Assembly: GCA_002269645.1 (NCBI GenBank)
Contig: NIVC01000220.1
Span: 1 to 21,084, forward strand
Direction of reading: 5' to 3'
Length of the DNA stretch: 21,084 bases
Origin: Macrostomum lignano
Lineage: Eukaryota
Below, piece by piece: positions 1 to 21,084 of the stretch. The position numbers were made by a program, and so were the translations under genes. The notes under the pieces were generated by a model. The model was not told where the DNA came from. It was given only the letters and a program-made list of their open reading frames with translations, and did no database searches. The first letter of the stretch is position 1, and the number at the start of each line of letters is the position of its first letter.

Positions 1-2482
1 TGGCTCCAAATGAAGGGATTGGCGTAGAGAAATCGGGACCCAATGCTTCAGGCTCCATTCTAGAGCCTTAAGTTCACATGAAATCCACATTTATCCCCTT
101 TCTCCCCACAGAGATCCCCAAACGCTAAAGTGGTCGGGTTTTCGGCATAACGGGAGCCATTTGGCTCCAAATGAAGGGATTGGCGTAGAGAAATCGGGAC
201 CCAATGCTTCAGGCTCCATTCTAGAGCCTTAAGTTCACATGAAATCCACATTTATCCCCTTTCTCCCCACAGAGATCCCCAAACGCTAAAGTGGTCGGGT
301 TTTCGGCATAACATGAGCCATTTGGCTCCAAATGAAGGGATTGGCGTAGAGAAATCGGGACCCAATGCTTCAGGCTCCATTCTAGAGCCTTAAGTTCACA
401 TGAAATCCACATTTATCCCCTTTCTCCCCACAGAGATCCCCAAACGCTAAAGTGGTCGGGTTTTCGGCATAACGGGAGCCATTTGGCTCCAAATGAAGGG
501 ATTGGCGTAGAGAAATCGGGACCCAATGCTTCAGGCTCCATTCTAGAGCCTTAAGTTCACATGAAATCCACATTTATCCCCTTTCTCCCACAGAGATCCC
601 AAACGCTAAAGTGGTCGGTTTTCGGCATAACGGGAGCCATTTGGCTCCAAATGAAGGATTGGCGTAGAGAAATCGGGACCAATGCTTCAGGCTCCATTCT
701 AGAGCCTTAAGTTCACATGAAATCCACATTTATCCCCTTTCTCCCCACAGAGATCCCAAACGCTAAAGTGGTCGGGTTTTCGGCATAACGGGAGCCATTT
801 GGCTCCAAATGAAGGGATTGGCGTAGAGAAATCGGGACCCAATGCTTCAGGCTCCATTCTAGAGCCTTAAGTTCACATGAAATCCACATTTATCCCCTTT
901 CTCCCCACAGAGATCCCCAAACGCTAAAGTGGTCGGTTTTCGGCATAACGGGAGCCATTTGGCTCCAAATGAAGGGATTGGCGTAGAGAAATCGGGACCC
1001 AATGCTTCAGGCTCCATTCTAGAGCCTTAAGTTCACATGAAATCCACATTTATCCCCTTTCTCCCCACAGAGATCCCCAAACGCTAAAGTGGTCGGGTTT
1101 TCGGCATAACGGGAGCCATTTGGCTCCAAATGAAGGGATTGGCGTAGAGAAATCGGGACCCAATGCTTCAGGCTCCATTCTAGAGCCTTAAGTTCACATG
1201 AAATCCACATTTATCCCCTTTCTCCCCACAGAGATCCCCAAACGCTAAAGTGGTCGGGTTTTCGGCATAACGGGAGCCATTTGGCTCCAAATGAAGGATT
1301 GGCGTAGAGAAATCGGGACCCAATGCTTCAGGCTCCATTCTAGAGCCTTAAGTTCACATGAAATCCCCATTTATCCCCTTTCTCCCTACAGAGATCCCCA
1401 AACGCTAAAGTGGTCGGGTTTTCGGCATAACGGGAGCCATTTGGCTCCAAATGAAGGATTGGCGTAGAGAAATCGGGACCCAATGCTTCAGGCTCCATTC
1501 TAGAGCCTTAAGTTCACATGAAATCCACATTTATCCCCTTTCTCCCACAGAGATCCCCAAACGCTAAAGTGGTCGGGTTTTCGGCATAACGGGAGCCATT
1601 TGGCTCCAAATGAAGGGATTGGCGTAGAGAAATCGGGACCCAATGCTTCAGGCTCCATTCTAGAGCCTTAAGTTCACATGAAATCCCCATTTATCCCTTT
1701 TCTCCCCACAGAGATCCCCAAACGCTAAAGTGGTCGGGTTTTCGGCATAACGGGAGCCATTTGGCTCCAAATGAAGGGATTGGCGTAGAGAAATCGGGAC
1801 CCAATGCTTCAGGCTCCATTCTAGAGCCTTAAGTTCACATGAAATCCACATTTATCCCCTTTCTCCCCACAGAGATCCCCAAACGCTAAAGTGGTCGGGT
1901 TTTCGGCATAACGGGAGCCATTTGGCTCCAAATGAAGGGATTGGCGTAGAGAAATCGGGACCCAATGCTTCAGGCTCCATTCTGGAGCCTTAAGTTCACA
2001 TGAAATCCACATTTATCCCCTTTCTCCCCACAGAGATCCCCAAACGCTAAAGTGGTCGGGTTTTCGGCATAACGGGAGCCATTTGGCTCCAAATGAAGGG
2101 ATTGGCGTAGAGAAATCGGGACCCAATGCTTCAGGCTCCATTCTAGAGCCTTAAGTTCACATGAAATCCCCATTTATCCCCTTTCTCCCCACAGAGATCC
2201 CCAAACGCTAAAGTGGTCGGGTTTTCGGCATAACGGGAGCCATTTGGCTCCAAATGAAGGGATTGGCGTAAAGAAATCGGGACCAATGCTTCAGGCTCCA
2301 TTCTAGAGCCTTAAGTTCACATGAAATCCCCATTTATCCCTTTCTCCCCACAGAGATCCCCAAACGCTAAAGTGGTCGGGTTTTCGGCATAACGGGAGCC
2401 ATTTGGCTCCAAATGAAGGGATTGGCGTAAAGAAATCGGGACCCAATGCTTCAGGCTCCATTCTGACTCTTAAGTTCATATG
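1..2482. repeat. 161-bp tandem satellite array, ~15.4 near-identical copies, open at the left window edge
   Basis: Unit CTAGAGCCTTAAGTTCACATGAAATCC...CAGGCTCCATT recurs at 60, 221, 382 and onward (period 161). Differences are mostly 1-nt homopolymer indels. The array stops at ...CTTAAGTTCATATG (2482). Confidence 0.98.
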
Positions 2483-3030
2483 CCCTTTAAGGCAAAAGGG
2501 GTCGAATACGAGATAGTACGAGCGTATTCACAAATTTGAGCGATATTCGCTCAACATTTGAGAATATAATTTCTGTGCTTTGCAGCGACCTGAATGCAGA
2601 TGACTTCGTCGCATCTAAGCTGACAGCGGACAATATGATGCTCGCCATCAATGTCCCGCCGGTCTGCGCCGCCCGCTTCACTGCAGAGTTGATATTTAAA
2701 CATATCAACAAGGTTCTGCAGTCGGACTCCAGTGTCTTGGGCAACAACTTTAAATTGTTTTTACTCAAGGCCTGGGTCCCGCGGGGCGGCTGCGGCAGCC
2801 TAGATGCGGCGGAGCGCCACATCCAGGCACGCCATTCAATGGGCTATAATTACGTTGTCATTGCCAACCGCGACAAGCGGTGCCTTATCCGGGCGCTGAT
2901 TGTCGCCAAGGCATACGCCGATCTGCAGGCCAAGGCCATCACTAAGCGGGCTTGGCGGACTATCAAAGCCGACTCCTCACTGCAGACGAAGCTGACTGGG
3001 GAGCTTCAGATTGCTGCCAATCCGTATTCG

Positions 3031-3112
3031 GTGAGTAAAAATGTTCTTGCACATTTTAATTTGCATTTTTATTAATATACAAATGTTTTAGTCTTTATCA
3101 ACCATTGCACAG
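3031..3112 (+). other. Spliceosomal intron 1 of pPolB (82 nt, phase 0)
   Basis: GTGAGT donor, TTGCACAG acceptor, ~26% GC between GC-rich coding segments. A further 1-nt frameshift near 3140 is needed to join the 3157 ORF. Confidence 0.75.
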
Positions 3113-5048
3113 GCCGGGCCTTTCTGGGTTGACGTGCTCCTCAACTGCTCGCCGCCATGAACGCTCAGTCACCCGGCCGGGATTTCGGCGTTCGTGTGTA
3201 CAGTGCTGAGGGAGGCAACACGTGTGTGTATGCCCTGCCCGGCAACACGGTGCTGAATCTGCACCTAATTGGCGAACACTTTAACGCGGTGTGCAAGGTA
3301 CCGCCATTTTTCGGTGCTCGCCGCTATTGTGAAAGCTGCCAGCAGCCGTACGACTGCGTGTCTGGAGAACACAAGTGCGCCAACACCTGCCCTCAGTGTA
3401 AAGTGCCCGGCTCCAATTGCAAGAGCCTGCGGTGTGACTATAAGCGCTGCGCTGATTGTGGCCTCAAGTGCTACAATCAGCAGTGCTTTAACAATCACCG
3501 CCAAAAAAACCGAGCCGGCAGGTCTCGCTGCAGCTCCATACGCGTCTGCTCCAAATGCGGATATTTGGAGGAGATGAAAGCGGGCCAGAAGGAGCCGGAG
3601 CACAAGTGCGGGCATGTCAAGTGCCCACTGTGTAAACAGTACGACGAGGCCGGCTCACATTTGTGTTTCGTCAAGGCTCCCAAAGTGAAAGCTTCGACTA
3701 TGCCGTACGTGTTCTACGATACGGAAACGTACACGGACGAGGAGAAGCAGCATCACGTGCATCTGGTGACTGCCGTCACGTGCTGCGAGACCTGCTCCGG
3801 CCGGGCGTTTCCGCGCGAGACTTGCCGCCTCTGCAATGGCCTGCATAGCGCCGCCAATTGTCTGACTGGCCGCGATCTGGGGGAGGAATTCTCCAATTGC
3901 GTCAGCCACTCAGACTGCGCCTGCCAAATGGCCGATTTTGTGGCTGTGGGCCCGGCCTCGCTGAATGCGTTTTTCGCCTGGCTGAGCACAGCTTTCCGTG
4001 GCGGCGCCATTGTTGTCGCGCACAATGCATCAGGCTATGATGCGTTTCTACTGCTTGGCGCTCTGCTCAACGGCCTGGCCAAGAAGCGGCCCCAAGTACT
4101 GTTCCAGGGTAGCCGGCTAATGAGCATGACGGTGGATAAATTGGTATTTAAAGATTCGTTAAACTTTATACCAATCCCGCTTGCGCAATTCCCCAAAGCG
4201 CTGGGGCTCGCTGACACAAAGCTGGCCAAGGGGACGTTTCCCCACGAGTTCAACAAGCCGGCTAATTGGAACTACGTGGGCCCCTACCCGGCTATTGAAT
4301 ATTATGGCGGCAAAGCAAACAATGACTACGACTCCATCTGTGCTTGGCTGGCCTCGCGACAGGGCGAGTTGTTCAACTTTAATCGGGAGTATCTCGATTA
4401 TTGTTTGAGTGACACAGTCCTGCTTCGCGAGGGCTGCATCAAGTACAGGGCAATAATTGGCGACATTTGCGACGGCCTGGAACCGTTTGTTCAGGCCAAT
4501 ACGATTGCCAGTTTGGCAATGGCCGTATTTACTACTAAATTCATGGAGCCCAACTCGGTCGGCGTGATTGCCCGGCAGGCCGACCAGCAGTCATTCAAGG
4601 CGCGCAAGTAACTGGCCTATTTGAATGCCACCGAATTTGGCGGGCGGCTGCGCACCTGCGACTCGACTGGCGGCGAGGCGGTCATTCTCGGCCGCAAGGT
4701 GGACGGCTTTGATGAGGCTAGCAACACTGTTTTGCAGTTTCTTGGTTGTTTCTACCATGGCTGCGAGCAGTGCATGCCCGATCAGGATGTCGTCCACCCG
4801 CTCTGAGCCACATTCGCCACGAAACCGAGTGGTTCACTCGCGAGTTGGAGCGGCATAATTACAGTGTTCGTACAATTTGGGAACATGAATACGACGCTGT
4901 ATTGGCATCGCAGGCCGATTTTATCGCCGCAACTGCCCATCTGCGCGCTCCACTCAAGATGGAGGATGCGCTCTATGGCGGCCGCGTAGAGTGTTTTATC
5001 CCGCATGCTGTGGCCAGCGAGACTGAGACGCTCAAATATCGGGATGTG

Positions 5049-5130
5049 GTGAGTAGTGATACTACTAATATAGTAGAATATTTTGTAAAAATACAGTTTA
5101 TGAAAAATAATGCTTTATTTCAACTTGCAG
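5049..5130 (+). other. Spliceosomal intron 2 of pPolB (82 nt, phase 0), inside motif A
   Basis: GTGAGT...ACTTGCAG. Removal gives KYRDV-VSLYPTV, restoring the DxxSLYP motif. Confidence 0.93.
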
Positions 5131-5685
5131 GTCTCTCTGTACCCGACGGTGCAGTCGAAAGACCCATACCCGATTGGCCACCCGGTGCAACATCCGACGC
5201 CGCAGACGCTCAACTCTGACGCGCTGGCCAGCTACTTTAATTGGCATTGCCAAAGTGACTGTGCTACCGCCGTCGGATTTGCATATTCCGCTGCTGCCGT
5301 ACAGGGTGCAAAAGAAGCTCTTTTTTGGGCTTTGCCGCACCTGTATGGAGCAGCAGTGCGGTGGCGAGTGCTGCGACCACTCAGACGAGGAACGGGCGCT
5401 GACTGGCACCTGGGCAACGCCGGAGCTGCAAAAGGCCTTCCAGTTGGGCTACCGTCTGCAGGCTGTTCACGCGCTAGCCTACTGGACAGAGAAGCGGACC
5501 GGTCTATTCGGTGATTACGTGAATGCCTTCCTGAAGCTGAAGGCCGAATCGAGCGGCTCCCCCGGCATGTCGGATGAAGATAAGGCGGTCTATATTGCCG
5601 ATTTCTTCGCCAAGGAGGGCGTCACGCTGGACAAGGTCGAACCCAACCCAGGACTTCGCTTTGTAGCGAAAATCTTTTTGAATTC

Positions 5686-5757
5686 GTAAGTATTCATAAA
5701 TTTTGTTTTTTAAATGATTTTCTTCTACTAACAGTAGCTTTTCTTTTCACTACACAG
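5686..5757 (+). other. Spliceosomal intron 3 of pPolB (72 nt, phase 2), inside motif B
   Basis: GTAAGT...CTACACAG. Removal gives KIFLN-S(TC|G)-LWGKF, in frame with the 5807 ORF. Confidence 0.94.
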
Positions 5758-6045
5758 GCTCTGGGGCAAATTTTGTCAGCGTGACGACCTGACATCGACC
5801 GAGATTGTGTCCAGCTACGAGGACTGGCTCGCCCGGCTGACCGACCCCAACCTCAAAGTCAAGGCCTGCGAACCGATTGGCAGCGAGTTTATGCTGCTAG
5901 AGTACCGGCACCGTTACTTTAATCAGCGGCCATTCAGGTACTCCAATGTGCCAATCGGAGTCTTTACGACCACGCAGGCCCGGCTGCGCCTGTACGAGGC
6001 ATTGGAGGGGCTCGGCGAACGGGCCATTTACTGCGACACTGACTC

Positions 6046-6130
6046 GTAAGTATTGCATTGGAAAAATTCTTTTAGAATTGAATAGTTAGCATGTGGAACT
6101 AATTATCTCGTTTTTCTCTCCCCCACACAG
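6046..6130 (+). other. Spliceosomal intron 4 of pPolB (85 nt, phase 2), at the end of motif C
   Basis: GTAAGT...CCACACAG. Removal gives YCDTD-S(TC|G)-VVYRH, continuing to SLGMWTDE. Confidence 0.94.
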
Positions 6131-6538
6131 GGTCGTTTACCGGCATTCCGAGGGCCAATGGGAGCCGCCCCATGGCACGAGCCTCGGAATGTGGACCGAT
6201 GAGGTGCCCGCAGGCAGCCGGATGACCGACTTTGTAAGTGGGGGCCCAAGCTCTACACTTACATTGTCGAGGATGCGGCCGGTGTCCGCAGCCAAGTCCT
6301 GAAATGCAAGGGCATCCGCCTGACTCCGGAGATACGGGAGCGTAGCGATGACTTGCGCAACACCCTGCTACACGGCGGCTCTCTGCAGCTGCCGCAGTTT
6401 CAGTTCAGGCGCGACAAGGCGTCTTGTACCATACACACGATCAGTATGGACAAGACGTTTCAGCGCGTGCTGACGAAACGCGTGTACGGGGCCTGCAGCA
6501 GGCCTTATGGCTATAAATAATGCTGACTGACAATTCAA

Positions 6539-7260
6539 TGTACATTTTGCATTATAAAATTAGTAAAATCTATTTGTTGTACATAATTTGCATATCAATG
6601 TACATAAAGCATTTTTGCATTGTAGCTCGTACTATTGCCAAATTTATCAGCGTGAATCTATTTGTTGTACATAATTCATGTACATAAAGTATTTTTGTAT
6701 TGTATGCGGTGAAATTGCCTATGTAATTACGAGTATCTATTGTACATATTTTGCGTGTCAGACCTGCTTAAAATCATTTATGAAGAGAAAAATATTGAAA
6801 AACAATGTAAAATTTTCCGTTTATTCTATTTGCTGGTAATGTACATAAATTTTTTCCTGTAATATGCTACTGATTTATTGTAAATATATCTTCTTTGTAA
6901 ATAGTTTATATACGATGTGAGCTGTACAATTAGTTGACTCATTTAGATGAGATTGTACACCAATTCTCACCTCTGCGAACAACTGTACATGTAGTAGGGT
7001 TTCGAGTTGTACATGTAATCTTGGTGATTCATACAGAGCGCGCCGGCCGTCTGGGGAAGACACTGTACATGTAGATTAATGTAGAAGTATGTACTGCGTA
7101 CATATAGAATTGGGGATAGAACATGTACAATTTGGGATAGATAGGGATTAATGTACATGGGATTAATGTACATATCCATTTGAGATAGATAGGGATTAAT
7201 GCAGTACATGGATTAATGTACATATGCAAGTACATATAGAAATATGCTATGTATACATAT
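6539..7260 (+). repeat. AT-rich TGTACA/TGTACATA-dense region with short internal duplications (putative pPolB 3' UTR or flank)
   Basis: About 16 TGTACA hexamers in ~700 bp. Duplicated blocks at ~6566-6624 vs ~6656-6704 and ~7131-7178 vs ~7180-7228. Confidence 0.8.
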
Positions 7261-7631
7261 TTCACGCTTAGAATAGCGTTTTCATATACTACTTACTTCA
7301 TTTTCAAATAGTAGTATAATTTGCGTTTTTTGCGTCAAATCTGTCTAAAAATCGACAACAATCTGCACGATACGTAGTCTTAAAACTACAAATTTTATTA
7401 ATGATTTCCAGAACTGGCTTGTTACAGGCGGTCCAGGTGCTGAGTTAAGACGTTCAGTTAGACTTGCCATAAACAGTCAAAGATTAAATACAAATATTTT
7501 AAGTTCAGTTTTGCCGGTAAAAGTGTCACAACACGCTCAAAATCCCATTCAAGCAAGCATCAGTGTTTAATAAGTAAACACATTCGTGTCTTAAATCAGA
7601 TAACAAGTGACAGTTGAAGGTTTTTAGATGT

Positions 7632-7805: not shown

Positions 7806-7817
7806 TAGGCTACGAAA

Positions 7818-8414
7818 ATGCCTGGAAGTACGCCAGCATCGCCAACTAAAGGAGTTGGTAAAACGGTTTCGAGCGACAAAGCACCACCGCTTGCGATCTC
7901 GTCGAAATCAGTCCAAGCGACAAAGTCGGCAACAGCGACAGCGCAGAACCCAAGCGCACAAGTATCGAGAGGACAGCAAGTTGACATCGAAAAACTCGAT
8001 GAAAGTTCGAACTTCCAGAGGTGGTTGGACCGATTCACACTGTGCAGCGAACTCAACGGCTGGCAGGACGACACGAAAAATAAGCTGCTGCTGATTAAGC
8101 TCAGTACCAAGCTGTACGACGCATTGGCAGATCGAGCCGCTCCCAAGAAGCCGGGAGAAAAGAGCTTCGATGAACTGACCAAACTACTGGCCAGCATCCT
8201 GGAACCAAAGACGTTCGTCATGGCTGAGAGATTCAATTTCCAGCATATCACTCGCACGGCATCAATGAGCATTCGTGAGTATGCACAGCAACTCTGCATG
8301 CAGGCAGACAAGTGTCAGTTTGGCCTATCCAGAGATGAGAGACTGAGAGAAAATTTAAACCTTTCAATCATTCGAAATCATGATCCTTGCCCCATCACCT
8401 TCATGCAACCTTGA
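7818..8414 (+). mobile_element. gag: Truncated Ty3/Gypsy (Mag/K02A2.6-like) gag ORF
   Basis: FQRWLDRF...KLYDALADRAAPKKPGEKSFDELTKLL...EPKTFVMAERFNF...SIREYAQQL...ADKCQFG...ERLRE matches the Mag-type Gag pattern. Similarity ends at ~8360. No zinc knuckle or pol. Confidence 0.82.
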
Positions 8415-9287
8415 CTGGCCGTGCCAATACTCATACCGAATAGAGCAGCATCACAACAGAGTCCGAAGTGACACGCCATAAGCCCACAGAAATCCGACGT
8501 CTGTCCTCATCAATAGGATGTCTGCAGCGTCAGTAGCTCCCGCACCGCGGCTATACTGGATTGAAAAAACTTGAGAACGATCCAAGGACCAAGTTTTTCT
8601 TCGAACTATTGTTTTCTGAGATTGAATTCAATTTTTTTAATTCTGCCATCCACACTGCTTTTTGCTCCGGAAGTATTTGTGTCCGTTACCAGGAAATGAG
8701 CTTGCTGCATGCCCTCACAATGCATTTTGTTATCTTCCTCAGCAAGTACCTTTTTACAGGTAGAGTTCCGGAAGATTGCAGGCTGGAATACGTGAGCCCC
8801 GATGTCTCCGGAGGTGCATCAGTAGCGTCAGCAGTTCCCAGGGATGTGGAGACTAGGTACTGGATTGTTGACGATAAATCTGTGGTGAATTTGCATGCTC
8901 TATGCGATTATTTAACGTATAAAATGCACTGATTTACTACATCTATCAGTAAGAAAATGTACATGCACATTGAGCACTAGCTTATTAGGTGAGAGCCAAC
9001 CTCTCCTTTCCTCTCAACTCGACTTAATTTATTTGGCGAGCAAAAATCGTCTTGACACGATTGAAGGGAACTTTCTTCTCCAAAAAAACTTCTTTTACGT
9101 AGATTCTATGCTCATAAAATTGTCAATCTTCTTCTGCATTGCAGGTATCCAAAAGTTAATTAGACCGAAACTCAAAATATTGTCCAACAGAATGTTACTT
9201 TTGCCTCTAGCTCTAGAACTTATTATTTTCAGATCGTTTTCATGCTGTTTGGCCTCGAAGCTGCTTGTCCGTCCTTACAAGACTCAA

Positions 9288-10001
9288 CTAGGTTTTGATG
9301 AACACAGCCCATCCGGGTCCGGTCAGGCTGGCTGGCGGGAAGGCGAACGGCAGCAGGCGGCAGGCGAGCAGCTGCTTGGAGAAGACGGCGCCGCTGCAGT
9401 TGGCTCTGGCGCTGCACTGGAGCAGGCAGTCCGCGTCGGACTGGGCAGCGGCCGGCCAGGACGAGTCGACGGTAGAGGTCACCGTGATGTCCGAATTCTT
9501 CAGCACAGTGTATGCATTGTTGCCTGAAAGTTGTGTAATTTTATTAAGATTTTCTCTCAGTTGAAATTCTAAGAGGCAGCGTCGAGCTAACTCACTCGGG
9601 AAGGTCATAGCAAACACGGAGTTGATTGAGAAGCCGCCACAAATCTGCTCTGGGTTTCCCGTGCACTGCCTGTTGCACATGCTATCACTGAGCTGTCCGT
9701 GGAGTCCGTAGGAGCTGCCGCAGAAGCACTGCTTGCCGACCTGCACGCCGAAGTAGGGAAAGCGGCCCAGAGAGCAGACGTTGCTGCAGAACTCGTGCGA
9801 CATGTTGTTGAGGCTGTGCACTAGGTCGCCAACACCAATACTGTACGGCCCCAGATTTTTTAACCCTTTCAGACCTGTCATATCTCTGTTCGAGTTATCA
9901 CCGTCTCGATAACAACCAACGTAGGAGAAATGAGCCACCCTGCCGGCTGCACAGGTCAGGAGGCCGCACAGCAACGCCGACTCTAACAGTGAGATTCTCA
10001 T
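9288..10001 (-). CDS. Secreted WSC-domain protein with C-terminal PAN/Apple-like Cys domain, paralog 1 (2 exons; intron 9524-9595; ~213 aa spliced)
   Basis: Signal-peptide-like N-terminus. WSC pattern YVGCY.D...C...C...YFGVQ.G.QCFCG...C...C.G.....CGG..NSVF. Intron GTGAGT...TTTCAG is 72 nt and in frame, so the ORF track reads through it. Same intron position as paralog 2. Confidence 0.88.
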   Translation of the reverse strand: MRISLLESALLCGLLTCAAGRVAHFSYVGCYRDGDNSNRDMTGLKGLKNLGPYSIGVGDLVHSLNNMSHEFCSNVCSLGRFPYFGVQVGKQCFCGSSYGLHGQLSDSMCNRQCTGNPEQICGGFSINSVFAMTFPSELARRCLLEFQLRENLNKITQLSGNNAYTVLKNSDITVTSTVDSSWPAAAQSDADCLLQCSARANCSGAVFSKQLLACRLLPFAFPPASLTGPGWAVFIKT

Positions 10002-10083
10002 TCTAATTCAAGAATAGTTACGGGTTAAAGCTATCGAATCTCAACATCCGGAGCTTGGAAGCAATTCTCTCACGAGCGTCATC

Positions 10084-10780: not shown

Positions 10781-12420
10781 TCAGGCATGTACACTGTCTG
10801 TCCCTCATTGGTTGTCAATTGCACAACAACCCTCGGGCAAGTTTCGTGCAAAAACCCCCTGAAAAATGGTTCCTTTCACGAAATCGTGAAAGCGAGCGAA
10901 CGAAAGTGATAAAATTTTCCCGCAGCACAGGCAATATTTTTGGCGAGCTACAAAAGTTTAAACTTTTCAGTAAAAGCATAAAACTGTAGGGACGTTGACC
11001 CTAAACTTTGCAGGCTCTAAGCAGAGCTACGGGAGATACTCGCAGCACAGGAGAAGATGATGGAAGCTGTCGAGAGCCGACACTCAGTGGCGGTTTGACA
11101 GCTTCAAGCAGGCTGCAGCACAGATTGCAACGCCACCTGATACTCCGTCGATCCCTCCACATCCCTGTTGTGTCTTTAAAGGCAACCATGTGGACACAGA
11201 GCAACCATGCTCGCAATGACCCAATCCACTGACTACAACAGCTTTGTCTCGCCCTTTGTTCGGAAGGTGGCCGCCTCCCCCAGTTACTAGCTCCCTAGCC
11301 TGTGAGTTTCCGTTATTGAAAAAATTTCTTCTATATACAATACTGTTTTTAAACATAGGAAGCAAGCCTCAAAACGAAGGTTTTCCTATTTTTTGAGCAG
11401 CTTTTTTTCTTTTCTTATCAGGTATTTCCCAAAACAATAGAAATCCTTGGAAGGACCGAACCAAAATGAAAACTAAAAAAAATCAATTCGTCAAATTTTT
11501 TTCTTCCATCTTTTATTGTCGAGATACTGCGGAAAGCGCGACCGCCCGAAAAAGAAGAGATCGAGCTTTTGCGACGATCACGGAGGAACCATGCAGCGTC
11601 GCTAGCAGCTTCCTGCTGGAAGGTGGATTTCTGCCCTTCGAGTGTCTCAAAAGCAGCGCATGAGCTGATTAAAGTAGTCAGGTTTGCGTCGTTACCTAAA
11701 TTGTGCGCTAATGTGCATAAATACGCATTCTTGTCAAAATCCCTAATTTCTAGATCCATCCTGTCTAGATCCATTGCGTGTACTGGGTGCATTCCTTTTT
11801 GCACTGGTATTTGGATTCGAACTTAGGATCATGCTGCTTATAATAGGAACCTAGTGGCACAAATGAGAAAACTTCAATTGTAAATTAATTTTTAGGAAGG
11901 TGCAGGTGGCCCTGCACTGATGGTTGAAAGTTGTTGGGACTCTGGTTTTGGGCAGCAAATTGAATGAGGTTTAAAGAATACGTATGGAAAGTGGATAATT
12001 AGAAGACTAATACAAGTAGTGAGTAAAAGTAGTATATTAGGAAGGTTTTCGAACTAAGATGATTTTGTTTTTTTCTTTTAGAATAATCAATATACTTCGT
12101 AGAATTAATGGGATTACGGGGGAAGTGAAAACTCGAATAGCACACTCAGGAAAACTATTGAAATAAATCTTAATCCCAGGAAGATGCATGGTTTAATGCC
12201 ATTTGTTAATTGCCAAAAAGCTGATTGACAATCGATTTAAAACATTTTTTATTTAACTCACACTATCTCACAGTAACAAAGCGAATTCCAGCACATCAAA
12301 AATCTTATTAGATCAAAAACCGATTTTTTTCTGAGATAAATCTTTTTCAGTTTTGTTCAGAGTCGAATCGTTGTCATGCTGTTTGGCTTCGAAGCCGCTT
12401 GTCCTTTTCTCTGAAATCAC

Positions 12421-13139
12421 CTAAGTTTTGATGAACACAGCCCACTCCGGTCCGGTCAGGCTGGCTGGCGGGAAGGCGAACGGCAGCAGGCGGCAGGCGA
12501 GCAGCTGCTTCGAGAAGACGGCGGCGCTGCAGTTGGCTCTGGCGCTGCACTGGAGCAGGCAGTCCGCGTCAGACTGGGCAGCGGCCGGCCAGGACGAGTC
12601 CACGGCAGAGGTCACCGTGATGTCCTTCAGCACAGTGTAGGCATTGCTTTCTGGAAGTTGTGGTTCCAACAAAAACCTACTCAATTAGATAAATTCGCAA
12701 CTCCAAGAGAACGGAGCAATGTTAACTTACTTGGGTAGTGCAGAGCGAACACGGAGTTGATGGTGAAGCCACCGCAAATCTGCTCTGGGTTTCCCTTGCA
12801 CTGGCTGTTACATTTGCTATCGCTGAGCTGTCCGTGGAGTCCGTAGGAGCTGCCGCAGAAGCACTGCTTGCCGACCTGCACGCCGAAGTAGGGGAAGCCG
12901 AACAGAGAGCAGAAGTTGCTGCAGACCCCGAGCGTCATGTCAGGGCTGTACATTAATGCACCGTCGGTGATGTACGATCCCAGATTGTTAAGTCCTTTCA
13001 GTGTTTTCAGGCCTGTCAAGTCTCTGTTTGGGTTAGCGGCGTCTTGGTAGCAACCGACATAAGAGAAATGAGCCACCCTGCCAGCCGCACAGGTCAAGAG
13101 GGCGCACAGCAACGCCGACTGCAGCTGGGAAATGCTCAT
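12421..13139 (-). CDS. Secreted WSC-domain protein with C-terminal PAN/Apple-like Cys domain, paralog 2 (2 exons; intron 12651-12730)
   Basis: Exon 1 MSISQLQS...FALHYP, phase-1 intron GTAAGT...TTCCAG (80 nt), exon 2 (K)SNAYTVLK...WAVFIKT*. Clear paralog of 9288-10001. Confidence 0.9.
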
Positions 13140-13223
13140 TGAGAAGAACTACAAGGCGACAGTTTAAGTCTTTGGAGTCTTAATGATAGTGCTAGTGCTA
13201 TCTTAGTTCTTAGTCGAATCAGT

Positions 13224-14640: not shown

Positions 14641-15822
14641 GTGTTAAAAACAGTAATTTACAGTAGTCTGAATCACCTTGAGTAGAATTTATACTGATGT
14701 AAAATATTGCATTCGTATGCCTGTGATTTGCGCAGTCAAAGGCTGCTAATCTTCTGGTAGGATTTTGAACTAATACTGCATAACTAGAAAATAAAATACA
14801 AATAACAGAAAAGACACAAATGTAGATTAATCAGAATTTCACCACAGCCGCCTCACGTGAGCTTGTAGTCAGAGACAATGGCCCCCGCAGCTCTGGGCTG
14901 AAGCTGCTTTTCTGAAAGTAGTTCCCAAGGCAGGCAAGCAGAACACAAGTAGGCGATGGAAGGAATTGAGAGCAGAGGCGCAAAAACTGTTTTTGACTTC
15001 ATCGTGAGCTTTCAAATTCTGCGAGCAGTCTCGGGTGACTGCTGTTCTGTTTGTGACACACTGGAAACTTTTCCTGATTCTGACACTGAGGAATCGATGG
15101 GGTTATTCAGCAACTACGAAGTCTTTTGAAGGCTTTTTTGATGAAGGAGAGTTTCTTTGTTTAAAGACAAGTACGCGAGTTTGTAGGGTTTGGATTGGAT
15201 AGGCAAGGAAGGAAAAAATTATGAATCTGCAGCAATGCCATTGTAAACTCTCGTATTCCGTTATAACCTCAGGCGGAAGAAAACCTGCTTAGATGACAAA
15301 ATTTCAGCACTTCTGTATACAGAGCCAGAGATACCACTGAGGCTTGACGAAGCCTCTTGGCGCTTCTTAGATGGATACTCAAGTTACATAACTGAGCAGA
15401 CTTCCTACAATTTCATCCCCTGGCGTCGATGGGGTGAGATATCGTGAGCTAACGACGACAAGGTTTACACAGGTAACACAGCTCAAGCAATAAGATTTAA
15501 AACGCGGGGGTTGACACGCGGGTTGCTACGGGGGCGAGGGTTAGGCGGTTAGACTCATCAGTTTTACTCTGTTTGAGTTAGAGTGTTTGGGGGAAGTCAG
15601 TTCTGAGTTCTTTTGCTGTCTTTTCGTGCGGGCCGGTCCGCGCGTCCACCCTTCGGTTGCTACGCCCCTCGGGGGTTGTATTGTAATTTGTTATTGAATT
15701 TAATATTCTTATTGAATTCAAATTACAATGCAATATTTGACACAATATGGTATAAATAACTTTTCGCTTCCAATTATTTTCGAACAGCAAGTCATGGCGG
15801 CTGCAGGAAGCGCTCACCGTCA

Positions 15823-15922
15823 CGAATCTGCGTCTCTAGAACTGAATCTGCGTCTCCAGAACTTAATCTGCGTCTCCAGGACTGAATCTGCGTCTCCAGA
15901 ACTGAATCTGCGTCTCCAGAAC
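15823..15922 (+). repeat. 20-bp minisatellite, ~5 degenerate copies
   Basis: ACTGAATCTGCGTCTCCAGA-type units, plus partial units at ~15948-15972. Confidence 0.88.
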
Positions 15923-16064
15923 TTAACAGCTAAAGCAAACAGAGAAGCTGCGTCTAGACTGAATCTGCGTCTGGGCCACTTGATGTGCTATAAATAGTTC
16001 AGGCTACATTCTGGTCTCCAAACTGAAGAGTACATGCAGGCTCATCAATGCACAACTTCAGTGC

Positions 16065-16092
16065 GAAATGCGAAATGCGAAAATCGAAAAGC
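16065..16092 (+). promoter_or_regulatory. GAAA x4 array with 7-bp period upstream of GIMAP copy 1 (IRF-E/ISRE-like)
   Basis: GAAATGC GAAATGC GAAAATC GAAAAGC. Cores are conserved in copy 2 while spacers differ. Function is inferred. Confidence 0.4.
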
Positions 16093-16279
16093 GTACGAAG
16101 AGGACCACTGAGGCAGTACAGGTACTACCTGCTCTAGACAATAGCAAATATGCTTAATGATGAGCTTTACCTAAAGCTCTAGGCACTACTCTGTTCAAAC
16201 TCTATATATCTGTTCAAAGTTTCAAGAACAGAAAACTACTAAGCCATCTCTAACCTACAGAGAAGACTGCACTACAGCA

Positions 16280-17213
16280 ATGTCAGCCGAACAGCCACAA
16301 GACTCCAGCCAGATGACAACGGTGGTCTGAGCAAGACGGGCAGCGGAAAGAGCTCTCTAGCCAACACCCTAATGAACGAGAAAAGCTTCATAGTCGGAAA
16401 CGGCTGATCTGGCAGACGAACCAGTGCGAGGCGCAGATGCGAACGCGTCCGCGGTCGCAGCCTGCTGGTCTGGACACTCCCGGAACCATGGACTCCAAGG
16501 ACGTTAACATGCCGCAGGGTGAGCTGCTGCGCACCCTGAACTGTCCGTGCGGCGTTGACGCCTTTCTCGTGGTCGCCAGAGCGGACGTGCGCTTCACCAA
16601 CGAAGAGTGGGCCATCCGCCAGACTGTGGACGTGTTCGGCCCGGAGTCGTGCAAGCGCGTCATCGTGGTGTTCAGCAGAGGTGACCATTTTGACAACGAC
16701 ATCAACGAATTTAAAAATAAAGAGCTGAAGGTCGCGCGAGAAGAAATTCCTGGATTCGACAAGATGATGAAGGACTTCGGAGACCGCTATGTGCTGATGG
16801 ACAACGGCAAGAGGTGCGACACGGAAGTGCAGGAACGGCAGGTGGCATCGCTGATGGGCCTTATCGATGAGGTATCGAAGCTGAACCCGAGCAAGTACAA
16901 GTACCTGGATAAGCAGACTGAGGAGCGGAAACGCCGAGAGGAGGCTGAGGCCCAGAAGCAGAATGACGTAGAAGATGGAAAAGATGGAAGCCGAGATCAA
17001 GCTTTTAAAGAAACAGCATCAGCAGCAGCAGCAGCAGCATCAGCAGCATCAGCAGCAGCATCAGCAGCAGCATCAGCAGCATCAGCGGCAGCAGCAATCA
17101 ATATATGCGCAGCGCCAACAGCCACAGCTCAGTTTAGGCTTTGTGGGCATTGTGAGCAGTCTCGGACAGGAGGCTTGAGCAATCATTGCAAGTCCTGTGG
17201 TCGACGCTGCTAA
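16280..17213 (+). pseudogene. AIG1/GIMAP-family GTPase, copy 1 (intronless, frameshifted in the 5' part)
   Basis: ATG at 16280. P-loop SKTGSGKS out of frame, G3 DTPG, G4-like FSRGD, family motifs RFTNEE, VFG, YVLMDN. Open from 16437 to 17213. Indels at ~16325-16475 may be real or assembly errors. Confidence 0.82.
17014..17096 (+). repeat. GCA/CAG imperfect microsatellite in the GIMAP C-terminus (poly-Ala/Ser in frame, poly-Gln/His in an alternative frame)
   Basis: (CAG)n interrupted by CAT. Equivalent tract in copy 2 at 21047-21084. Confidence 0.9.
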
Positions 17214-18000
17214 GCTATTTGATAAAGTTTTTGGCTGACAGTTTTCTTAAGAACTCCTTACACTCTCCTATCTATAGAAAACCGCTGTCCTATGAGATTG
17301 AGTTAATTTCTGAGTTCTTTGCTTTGGTAGTTTTGTTGAATACTCCATGGTTATTCAGTTTATGAAACCTTGTAAATTAGTGACACAACAAATTTTGCGA
17401 AATGGACTTTTTGAGGTCTATGGCCCAGAGACACGCTCTCTGACTTCTACCCTTTCTGGCCACTGTGTGGCTGGCGGGAGAAGTATTTTGTTGTTGTTGC
17501 TGAAATTGACTCAAATTATGCTGTACTATTGTGCCTCACTGCCTATCCAGAAGCTTATCAATAGTGATTCTTTGCTTGATCAGCTTGCTATCCATTACAG
17601 CAGGCTCAAGAATTTATGCCTCATTCTGCTATGCAAACCAATTAATATCGGTGAAGTAGAAAGTTTGCGCTCAGTGTTAAAAAATTAGTAGTCCTGAGTT
17701 AAGCTTTAATCCAGACAAGACTCACCTTAATTAAAGTCCTAGATGCTATTGGTGTAAAAACAGTGAGAATAAATATAAAATATTTAATACAGGTATTTGT
17801 ACCAACAAGCCACACTTCGAGCATGGCTCCTTCCGATTGCATAAACTTTTAATAGCCAAGAATAAATATAAAGTTATCCGTGTTCTACGCGATATTATGT
17901 GCCTGTGGTAACTTAATCAAGGGCCTAGCAGAAAAAATCATTGAAGATAGTTCTGCTAGGAAGTTCCTATGTTCTTCAATCTGATTTCACTAAATTGGGG

Positions 18001-18070
18001 GCAAGTAGTTAAATAGAATTGCGTTGGACTCTTGTGTCAAAGTCCCGAGTTCGATTCCGTTCGGGCCGCA
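18001..18070 (+). mobile_element. Degenerate tRNA-derived (SINE-like) head
   Basis: B-box-like GAGTTCGATTCC (18047-18058). GCGTTGGACTC matches GCGTCGGACTC of the SINE head at ~13690-13710. No CORE body follows. Confidence 0.4.
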
Positions 18071-19320
18071 TCAATGACAAGGTCATTGTTGTTCAATAGA
18101 AAATAAAAGAAACAGCCTGTGTTCATACAAACTAATGAATTATTGTCGAGACTACAGAATCTCTGTAAATTTTTTACTACGTAAATTATTTTTTGTATAT
18201 CTGCGATTTGCGCAGTCAAAGGCTGCTAATCTTCTGGTAGGATTTTGAACTAATACTGCATAACTAGAAAATAAAATACAAATAACAGAAAAGACACAAA
18301 TGTAGATTAATCAGAATTTCACCACAGCCGCCTCACGTGAGCTTGTAGTCAGAGACAATGGCCCCCGCAGCTCTGGGCTGAAGCTGCTTTTCTGAAAGTA
18401 GTTCCCAAGGCAGGCAAGCAGAACACAAGTAGGCGATGGAAGGAATTGAGAGCAGAGGCGCAAAAACTGTTTTTGACTCCATCGTGAGCTTTCAAATTCT
18501 GCGAGCCGTCTCGGGTGACTGCTGTTCTGCTTCTGACACACTGGAAACTTTTCCTGATTCTGACACTGAGGAATCGATGGGTTATTCAGCAACTATTGTA
18601 AGGCCTTTTTTGATGAAGGATAGTTTCTTTGTTTAAAGACAAGTGCGCGAGTTTGTAGGGCTGGATTGGATAGGCAAGGAAGGAAAAAATTATGAATCTG
18701 CAGCAATGCCATTGTAAACTCTCGTATTCCGTTATAACCTCAGGCGACGAAAACTTCCGATGACAAAATTTCAGCACTTCTGTAGAAAGAGGCAGAGAGA
18801 TACCACTGAGGCTTGACGAAGCCTCTTGACGATTCTTAGATGAATACTCAAGTTACATAACTGAGCAGACTTCCTACAATTTCATCCCCTGGCGTCGATG
18901 GGGTGAGATATCGTGAGCTAACGACGACAAGGTTTACATAACACAGCTCAAGCAATAAGATTTAAAACGCGGGGGTTGACACGCGGGTTGCTACGGGGGC
19001 GAGGGTTAGGCGGTTAGACTCATCAGTTTTACTCTGTTTGAGTTAGAGTGTTTGGGGGAAGCCAGTTCTGAGTTCTTTTCCTGTCTTTTCGTGCGGGCCG
19101 GTCCGCGCGTCCACCCCTCGGTTGCTATGCCCTCAGGGTTGGCCGCCGGTCTTGGGTGCGCCCGCTGCTCCTCCCCAGGAGCGGCCTCCTTGTCGGGCTC
19201 ATTTAATATTCAATAGCAAATAACAATACAATATTTGACACAATATAGTATAAAGAACATTTCGCTTCCAATTATTTTCCAACAGCAAGTCATGGCGGCT
19301 GCAGGAAGCGCTCACCGTCA

Positions 19321-19657
19321 CGAATCTGCGTCTCCAGGACTGAACCTGCGTCTCCAGGACTGAACCTGCGTCTCCAGGACTGAACCTGCGTCTCCAGGAC
19401 TGAACCTGCGTCTCCAGGACTGAACCTGCGTCTCCAGGACTGAACCTGCGTCTCCAGGACTGAACCTGCGTCTCCAGGACTGAACCTGCGTCTCCAGGAC
19501 TGAACCTGCGTCTCCAGGACTGAACCTGCGTCTCCAGGACTGAACCTGCGTCTCCAGGACTGAACCTGCGTCTCCAGGACTGAACCTGCGTCTCCAGGAC
19601 TGAACCTGCGTCTCCAGGACTGAACCTGCGTCTCTAGGACTGAATCTGCGGCTCCAG
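19321..19657 (+). repeat. 20-bp minisatellite, ~17 copies, mostly identical
   Basis: TGAACCTGCGTCTCCAGGAC repeated. Only the first and last two units differ. Confidence 0.97.
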
Positions 19658-20080
19658 TTTCGTTTTGTGTTAAGCCGAGCAAACAAGGAGTGGGATAAAG
19701 GGGCATGGTAATTCTTCACTATCATGGTACGTCAAGTGCATAACCCCAGTACTTCAACATAGGTAGCCTATCTACAATCAGGAACAACTTTAAAAAGATG
19801 CACTTTTTACAAGGCCAGTAGGCGTGTTTTGTCTTTCTTTCAATCTCAGCTGTCACGAAAATATTACAATTTGATTATTGTCGGTTTCAAGGATTTTCCT
19901 GGTTATTTCATCATGGAAAATTATTTGTGTACATTCAGCTGGAATGACTGCAGCAGACTAGACAGCTAAAGCAAACAGAGAAACTACTGGAGCACTTGGT
20001 GTGCTATAAATAGTTTAGGCGTACATTCTGGACCAAATTTGAAGAGTACATGCATGCTCATCAATGCACAGCTTCAATGC

Positions 20081-20108
20081 GAAATACGAAAAGTGAAAAT
20101 CGAAAAGC
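20081..20108 (+). promoter_or_regulatory. GAAA x4 array with 7-bp period upstream of GIMAP copy 2 (IRF-E/ISRE-like)
   Basis: GAAATAC GAAAAGT GAAAATC GAAAAGC, containing GAAAAGTGAAA. Confidence 0.4.
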
Positions 20109-20310
20109 GGTACGAGGACCACATTAAAGAATGTTGTGCAGGTACTACCTGCTCTTGACAATGGCAAATAGAGTTTATTGATGAGCTTTACCTAAAACTC
20201 GAGGAACTACTCTGTTCAAAAAACTCTATATATACAGCGGGTGTTCAAAGCTCCAAGAACAGAAAACTACTAAGCCATCTCTAACCTACAGAGAAGACTG
20301 CACTACAGCA

Positions 20311-21084
20311 ATGTCAGCCGATCAGCCGCAAGACTCCAGCCAGATGACAACGGTGGTGCTGATGAGCAAGACAGGCAGCGGAAAGAGCTCTCTAGCCAAC
20401 ACCCTAATGGAGGAGGAAAGCTTCAAAGTCGGAAATGGCATGAGTCGCAGACGAAGCAGTGCGAGGCGCAGATGCGAACGGTCCGCGTCGCAGCCTGCTG
20501 GTGGTGGACACTCCCGGAACCATGGACTCCAAGGACGTTAACATGCCGCAGGGTGAGCTGCTGCGCACGCTGAACAAGTGTCCGTGCGGCGTTGACGCCT
20601 TTCTCGTGGTCGCCAGAGCGACGTCCGCTTCACAAACGAAGAGTGCCTGGCTATCCGCCAGACTGTGGAAGTGTTCGGTCCGGATCGTGCAAGCGCGTCA
20701 TCGTGGTGTTCAGCAGAGGTGACCATTTTGACAACGACATCAACGAATTTAAAAATAAAGAGCTGAAAGTCGCGCGAGAAGAAATTCCTGAGCTCGACAA
20801 GATGATGAAGGACTTCGGAGACCGCTACGTGCTGATGGACAACGCAAGAGGTGCGACCCGGGTATGCAGGAACGGCAGGTGGCAACGCTGATGGGCCTTA
20901 TCGATGAGGTATCGAAGCTGAACCCGAGCAAGTACAAGTACCTGGATAAGCAGACTGAGGAGCGGAAACGCCGAGAGGAGACTGAGGCGCAGAAGCAGAA
21001 TGACGTAGAAGATGGAAAAGATGGAAGCCGAGATCAAGCTTTTAAAGCAGCAGCAGCATCAGCGACAGCAGCAGCAGCATCAGC
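20311..21084 (+). pseudogene. AIG1/GIMAP-family GTPase, copy 2 (frameshifted, 3'-truncated by the window)
   Basis: MSADQPQDSSQMTTVVLMSKTGSGKSSLANTL, then LLVVDTPG, CPCGVDAFLVV, VIVVFSRGD in successive frames. Several 1-nt indels at positions different from copy 1. Confidence 0.82.

Follow-up and report, generated by a model that had tools for sequence, protein, structure and literature searches.

Polintons, also known as Mavericks or adintoviruses, are elements of 13-25 kb in which a protein-primed family-B DNA polymerase (pPolB) and an integrase are encoded together, as set out in the accessible text of a nematode survey (10.1101/2023.08.22.554363). That survey counted a pPolB only if it was linked to an integrase and, as far as the same text goes, would therefore miss elements carrying the polymerase without an integrase. 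Intact vertebrate Mavericks are described as intron-less in the available part of PMC8097293. Among viruses, the bidnaviruses carry a Polinton-derived pPolB in a bipartite ssDNA genome with matching termini (PMC4061559 and PMC8502044, in their accessible sections). Conserved sites are where homing endonucleases take inteins as well as group I introns, and for which spliceosomal introns show no preference, according to the available portion of PMC2814812. A look-up of terms in the searchable text of PMC11071308 and 10.64898/2026.10.13.758929 returned no segmented Polinton, and our literature search (Repbase, supplements and closed journals lay outside it) turned up no description of a Polinton in two parts, nor of spliceosomal introns with a preference for pPolB motifs.

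Here we describe a pPolB gene of Macrostomum lignano which, unlike the intact vertebrate Mavericks as that source describes them, contains spliceosomal introns, and whose element is probably one half of a Polinton, the genes being divided between two elements of ∼10 kb instead of residing in one of 13-25 kb. The window, i.e. the whole stretch of 21,084 nucleotides analysed (contig NIVC01000220.1, forward strand), contains one copy of this gene. It encodes a protein-primed family-B polymerase (PF03175, E = 3e-13), whose closest UniRef homologues are from M. lignano itself, followed at 33-40% identity by proteins of molluscs, corals and metagenomes. The features of the element copy are as follows (a slash marks the position of an intron).

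1..2465, no strand: 161-bp satellite array inside the element copy, replacing the polymerase 5′ exons
2487..3030, plus strand: first surviving pPolB coding stretch, N-terminal region
3031-3112, plus strand: intron 1, 82 nt, phase 0, starts GTGAGTA; outside the polymerase motifs
3113..5048, plus strand: long exon with Cys-rich region, exonuclease domain, VSR-like insert and start of motif A (PF03175)
5049-5130, plus strand: intron 2, 82 nt, phase 0, starts GTGAGTA; in motif A, DV/VSLYP
5131..5685, plus strand: exon from motif A to motif B, with a frameshift near 5190-5240
5686-5757, plus strand: intron 3, 72 nt, phase 2; in motif B, LN-TC/G-LWGKF
5758..6045, plus strand: exon from motif B to motif C; 36 synonymous versus 12 non-synonymous codon variants in 27 copies
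6046-6130, plus strand: intron 4, 85 nt, phase 2; in motif C, DTD-TC/G-VV
6131..6520, plus strand: last exon through the stop codon, with a frameshift near 6250
7060..7378, no strand: right terminal inverted repeat; the outermost 31 bases are laid out as in the integrase-capsid partner element
7379..7384, no strand: 6-bp target-site duplication CTTAAA, whose mate is found at this insertion's left end in G000:C1486

The label VSR is borrowed, by description, from the accessible text of 10.1101/2023.08.22.554363. The window copy of the gene is dead: in addition to the satellite and the frameshifts listed, the long exon has a frameshift near its start, an in-frame stop at 4609-4611 and a frameshift near 4800. 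The satellite is not present in other copies, and lies between both element ends in the near-identical copy G000:C1486. Throughout the genome the gene exists as two families with 73-76% amino-acid identity between them, family 1 at no fewer than 44 places and family 2 at no fewer than 53. Of 28 loci in family 1, 15 are unbroken over the aligned part; synonymous variants outnumber non-synonymous ones in both comparisons made (36:12 and 69:43). A third intron-bearing pPolB family was not found among 91 scored of 974 candidates, and viral contigs yielded no relatives, either with a family exon as query or with an alignment of the partner's major capsid protein.

Four introns interrupt the gene at the positions given by the original prediction, and joints in contigs of probable RNA runs agree with these coordinates. 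Re-reading of the sequence bore out the ends, phases and lengths as well, together with the splitting of motifs A, B and C as DV/VSLYP, LNS/LWGKF and DTDS/V. All four introns are GT-AG and followed by an exonic G; their GC content is 0.24-0.34 versus about 0.55-0.6 in the exons, and skipping any of them restores an unbroken motif. A spliced profile aligner made for this analysis placed introns 2-4 to the exact base. Removal was read from contigs of four runs from four studies, which the software guessed to be RNA, none being recorded as such. Intron 4 is skipped exactly by contigs in all four runs, intron 2 in three and intron 3 in two; intron 1 is skipped in one run, with one other letter at the joint. 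Some contigs extend into introns 3 and 4, which in contigs looks the same for retention, pre-mRNA and DNA. The same runs gave no further intron joint in 2480-6620.

Family 2 keeps the same four positions, including that of intron 1, and by sequence comparison these positions predate the split of the two families. GT-AG ends were found at 25/27, 29/30 and 28/30 junctions in family 1 and at 35/35, 35/35 and 23/23 scored junctions in family 2 (40 loci; the rest missed the patterns), where intron lengths range from 65 to 144 nt in all three frames and none has been lost. No intron-less DNA copy occurs among the scored junctions of 30 family-1 and 40 family-2 loci; at C1165 a long open frame had raised the suspicion of a loss, but the intron is still there, behind a variant donor. 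The common length of introns 1 and 2 is a property of the window copy, intron 2 ranging from 81 to 88 nt in family 1. Introns near the 5′ end appear, by eye, to be more numerous in fuller copies. A group I or group II identity was rejected, since Rfam gave no match up to E = 1 in 2400-7500 and the introns measure 65-144 nt. YTRAY is present within the last 50 nt of five of eight introns, a count that stands without a control set. In donor, acceptor, length and exact removal from probable transcripts these introns are host-like, as fits U2-type spliceosomal introns.

The placement of the introns is non-random, three of the four falling in catalytic motifs. The sites of introns 2-4 each lie in the top 4% of conserved seven-residue windows (761 columns), and permutation gave p = 3.8e-4. 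A binomial estimate for at least three of four introns within 24 of about 1250 codons was 2.8e-5, and all settings fell between 3e-5 and 0.016, the latter being the loosest (six introns, 10% of codons counted as motif). When sites were matched for flanking exon bases, p was 2e-4 to 1e-3 for the window and up to 0.016 for family 2. Host myosin introns, taken as a control, were unbiased (p = 0.19 with 31 filtered positions, 0.98 with 47 unfiltered ones).

Intron positions were also compared in distant pPolB homologues, with 87 related loci aligned: seven viral ones and 80 from metagenomes, the top scorers out of at least 500 matches, a sample that is thereby biased toward intron-less genes. Calls were kept if they had a GTR donor, a YAG acceptor and a GC content at least 0.05 below that of the flanks. 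This filter removed nine automatic calls from the C-terminal run and about 30 from the full-length one; among the failures, a call at window column 514 was an artefact, and one L156 intron misses the GC threshold but has the same position as that of L144. Filtered introns remained in six of the 87 loci at eight positions, namely in exonuclease motif II, at two points of the VSR-like insert, next to and within motif A, in motif B, and at two less conserved sites. None of the eight coincides with a position in the window gene. Conserved sites are again preferred (p = 6.8e-4), and independent introns cluster at columns 900.2, 905.0 and 906.2 of motif A and 1090.2 and 1093.1 of motif B. The carriers are spread over at least three clades, with intron-less sequences in between, in a FastTree phylogeny (4 of 90 rows left out as too short, deep branches weakly supported), and the ancestral pPolB appears to have been intron-less. 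This bias is less firm than that of the window gene, because it disappears when all automatic calls, including filter failures, are admitted (p = 0.20) and because introns are more easily detected in conserved stretches. A preference for conserved sites, repeated at different bases, contrasts with the result for spliceosomal introns in the available portion of PMC2814812.

The elements that carry this gene, here called A, measure 9.4-9.9 kb in both families and have terminal inverted repeats (TIRs) starting ACTAC and 6-bp target duplications; the window copy ends at 7378. Among 18 family-2-ended elements whose two ends could both be seen, 17 have the duplications, as do seven family-1 A insertions. 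The polymerase (PF03175), the TIRs and the 6-bp duplications are traits A has in common with the VSR-type pPolB group of Polintons. Measured against a single-element Polinton, A has the protein-primed polymerase and the TIRs with target duplication, but lacks the integrase, the capsid module, the length of 13-25 kb and the intron-less core genes; none of the A elements examined contains an integrase or capsid gene. Searching with the terminal 17-mer of family 2 first revealed a second type of element, B, of about 10-10.5 kb, which encodes an rve integrase (PF00665), a major capsid protein (MCP) and candidates for a minor capsid protein, a protease, an ATPase and PZ. The minor capsid, protease and PZ assignments are our assumption from gene order and known motifs, with no library match. 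A capsid search led to a second B family, 84-88% identical to the first, whose ends match family-1 A. All eight B elements with both ends seen have 6-bp duplications, and the outer 31 bases have the same layout in A and B.

The capsid protein of B is a predicted double-jelly-roll MCP: the modelled fold of an 81%-identical homologue (pLDDT 64) is of this type and resembles PBCV-1 Vp54 and Sputnik (E about 3e-13). A sequence search of the PDB with the MCP gave no match. The ATPase has a P-loop and 32-35% identity to that of a resident Polinton; searching the genome with the Pox_A32 family gave no match despite the ATPases present, and is hence insensitive. The 11 B copies examined lack a polymerase domain; a 73-residue match in one of them is to the N-terminus of a gene model only. 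The gene sets of A and B never occurred within one of the elements examined. The 97 pPolB and 62 MCP places have a contig in common twice, at distances of 47 and 167 kb, and another comparison adds one pair separated by about 470 kb. Three of those probable RNA runs also contain B sequence, which testifies to presence only, and no GT-AG joint was found in B across the 8.1 kb compared with these runs.

Taken together, A and B hold the full Polinton core gene set, with pPolB and integrase identified by Pfam. It is likely that the two complement each other, and their gene content and shared termini suggest that they probably constitute a bipartite Polinton. A would then copy both halves, B would integrate and package both, and the non-coding palindromes described below would ride along. 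Alternatively, the integrases of conventional Polintons, rather than that of B, could serve A; such Polintons exist in the genome as several groups (L052-L070) with long uninterrupted pPolB frames, besides one degraded AT-rich pPolB without introns (L051), but A-like ends were absent from 16 stretches around conventional Polintons. The two-element arrangement resembles that of bidnaviruses in its two segments, matching termini and Polinton-derived pPolB, as the accessible sections of PMC4061559 and PMC8502044 describe them. However, by the same sections bidnaviruses have a parvovirus-like capsid and no integrase, and here the capsid is of predicted double-jelly-roll type and both halves are integrated with duplications. 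Assignment to the Bidnaviridae was accordingly rejected, the predicted fold of the B capsid differing from the parvovirus-like single jelly-roll of these ssDNA viruses. If true, a split Polinton whose halves need each other would bring segmentation to the double-jelly-roll DNA viruses and provide a model for the step toward bipartite bidnaviruses. Surveys that demand intact ORFs or a linked integrase overlook both motif introns and the split layout.

Several further elements and genes were seen around A and B. Some family-1 A elements (L107, L240, L241 and L245) carry a PC4-like gene, so labelled because a resident Polinton protein that weakly matches PF02229 is 31% identical, and a dUTPase gene (PF00692) in the arm opposite pPolB; in other family-1 A elements this arm is non-coding and akin to the palindromes. 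A Fic-domain gene (PF02661) is present in family-2 B (L073:9122-9901) and absent from those family-1 B elements that were examined. A further set of elements, 3-10 kb long and non-coding, shares the element ends and the 6-bp duplications; many are giant near-perfect palindromes with arms up to 99.9% identical (L071, L072, L074-L076 and L079-L085 in family 2; L091-L106 and part of L108 in family 1). These non-coding elements appear to be defective hitch-hikers that are copied and inserted in trans. Within the termini, bases 9-27 (window 7352-7370) comprise two short blocks; each has at least 10 variants, combined in many ways, and the two ends of a given element usually agree. Some variants are common to A, B and the palindromes (2/4 and 2/6 B variants in the loci examined). 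The 20 or so bases with which family-1 B ends continue are those of family-2 A. In ENA and Logan contigs we found capsid proteins 80-81% identical to that of B (P0228-P0230, P0234), which places close relatives of B outside this assembly.

Why should the introns sit in the catalytic motifs? We favour, and consider reasonably likely, the view that host-type introns in the pPolB of a probably partner-dependent Polinton half-element of ∼9.5 kb have been kept where precise splicing is obligatory. The element would replicate as DNA and be prone to indels, such that an intron in a variable loop may vanish by imprecise deletion or, alternatively, turn into an in-frame insert. Either event in motif A, B or C would kill the polymerase, and old introns would pile up there. 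That this precision filter by itself explains the motif bias is a more tentative proposal, somewhat short of an even chance. In its favour, the GT-AG splice sites are conserved while intron length and frame drift, and the read-through exit is often open, since 15 of 36 copies have an intron 2 that keeps the frame and contains no stop. Against it stand the large excess of loss from variable regions that it requires and the position of intron 1, outside the motifs yet equally old, along with the additional 5′ introns that fuller copies appear to have; no direct case of imprecise loss or of an exonised intron was observed. The pPolB introns provide a clean system in which intron gain and loss can be tested.

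A close rival to this filter, although on the whole unlikely, is targeted gain: nucleases, homing or restriction-like and from competing elements or the host, would cut invariant motif codons, repair would leave AT-rich inserts, and the spliceable ones would survive and protect the site. The bunching of independent introns within a few codons of motifs A and B speaks for this idea, as does the delivery of inteins and group I introns to conserved sites by homing endonucleases in the available portion of PMC2814812. The pPolB introns resemble those insertions in being removable from the most conserved motifs of an essential enzyme, as that portion describes them; unlike them they are short GT-AG introns with no coding capacity and no ribozyme. 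On the other hand, inspection of the spliced junctions of both families and the relatives revealed no common word, neither A nor B yielded a nuclease gene, Rfam had no match, and no intron-less allele was seen in the genome. Less likely again is a broader scheme, in which a segmented integrating dsDNA animal virus with ∼10-kb halves uses polymerase introns as shields against rival nucleases, repeatedly across Polinton lineages.

We also considered chance combined with ascertainment, i.e. that the introns are few and those in motifs were the ones that reader and aligner noticed. This lineage offers just three motif sites, and the external signal is lost with unfiltered calls. The window introns, however, are found from GC content and RNA-type joints with no need of motif knowledge, these joints point to no other intron in 2480-6620, and the window statistics hold in every setting, all of which makes this explanation improbable.

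The third intron of the P element is retained in the soma and spliced in the germ line, and the original prediction envisaged a similar on/off switch here, with retention in the soma and splicing in germ line or stem cells. The present gene is like the P element in that a transposon enzyme depends on host splicing; unlike the P element, it gave no sign of weak sites, a conserved retained product or tissue control. A few contigs do contain intron sequence, and a retained intron 3 or 4 would lead to an immediate stop in most copies (31/34 and 34/36), but such a stop is automatic for any phase-2 GTRA donor. The donors are of the strongest host types, spliced forms are present in runs of four studies, and a retained intron 2 is read through in the stop-free copies and reaches stops at varied distances in the others, with nothing to suggest a conserved product. 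An intron anywhere upstream of motif C would disable the enzyme if retained, and a switch hence does not explain the motif placement. The switch thus found no support and is quite improbable, and splicing is likely constitutive.

The original prediction also noted that introns 3 and 4 both start GTAAGTATT and finish ACACAG, and offered either a common intron-gain mechanism or the host splice consensus as the reason. For comparison with the host we used 54 myosin introns kept out of 82 calls (28 were dropped for weak flanks, disagreement of two scorings, or origin in one near-duplicate gene). The commonest host donors are GTAAGT (11) and GTGAGT (9), together 20 of 54, and these are the types found in pPolB; CAG acceptors occur in 41 of 54 and lengths of 65-106 nt in 24 of 54. 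Host donors are GTRAGT in 14 of 21 cases when the last exon base is not G, and otherwise in 6 of 33. The Ser codon at introns 3 and 4 forces a non-G last exon base, so that this conditioning explains the shared donor. The same GTAAGTATT donor is also present in one host myosin intron, and its extra AT lengthens pairing with the 5′ end of U1 snRNA. A naive host matrix gave a 9-nt donor match a probability of about 1e-3, with 0 of 1399 host pairs matching. Since the match is rare by this matrix, common origin was tested directly: for all 28 pairings of the eight introns from both families, the bodies align no better than shuffles (best z 2.1), family 2 has another pattern of intron ends in which the pairing is absent, and ends differ among copies. 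Host consensus therefore accounts for the shared termini, and the idea of a common gain origin was abandoned. An introner, or intron transposition, as the common source of the pairs is most improbable, for although nine donor and six acceptor bases of introns 3 and 4 are identical, introners are known in dinoflagellate Polinton-like elements (10.1101/2025.03.18.643946, in its accessible text) and homology may have decayed (the orthologous introns of the two families no longer align either), the bodies form no repeat family among the pairs compared.

The remainder of the window contains unrelated features. An LTR-retrotransposon gag-like frame fragment (DUF7083, weak Retrotrans_gag) lies at 7809-8414. 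Two tandem WSC-domain genes follow on the minus strand (9284-10007 and 12417-13148), each with one short GTRAGT intron. Finally, 14700-21084 is occupied by a tandem duplication of 3.5-4 kb with two AIG1/GIMAP-like genes that show apparent frameshifts, and includes a 20-bp minisatellite.
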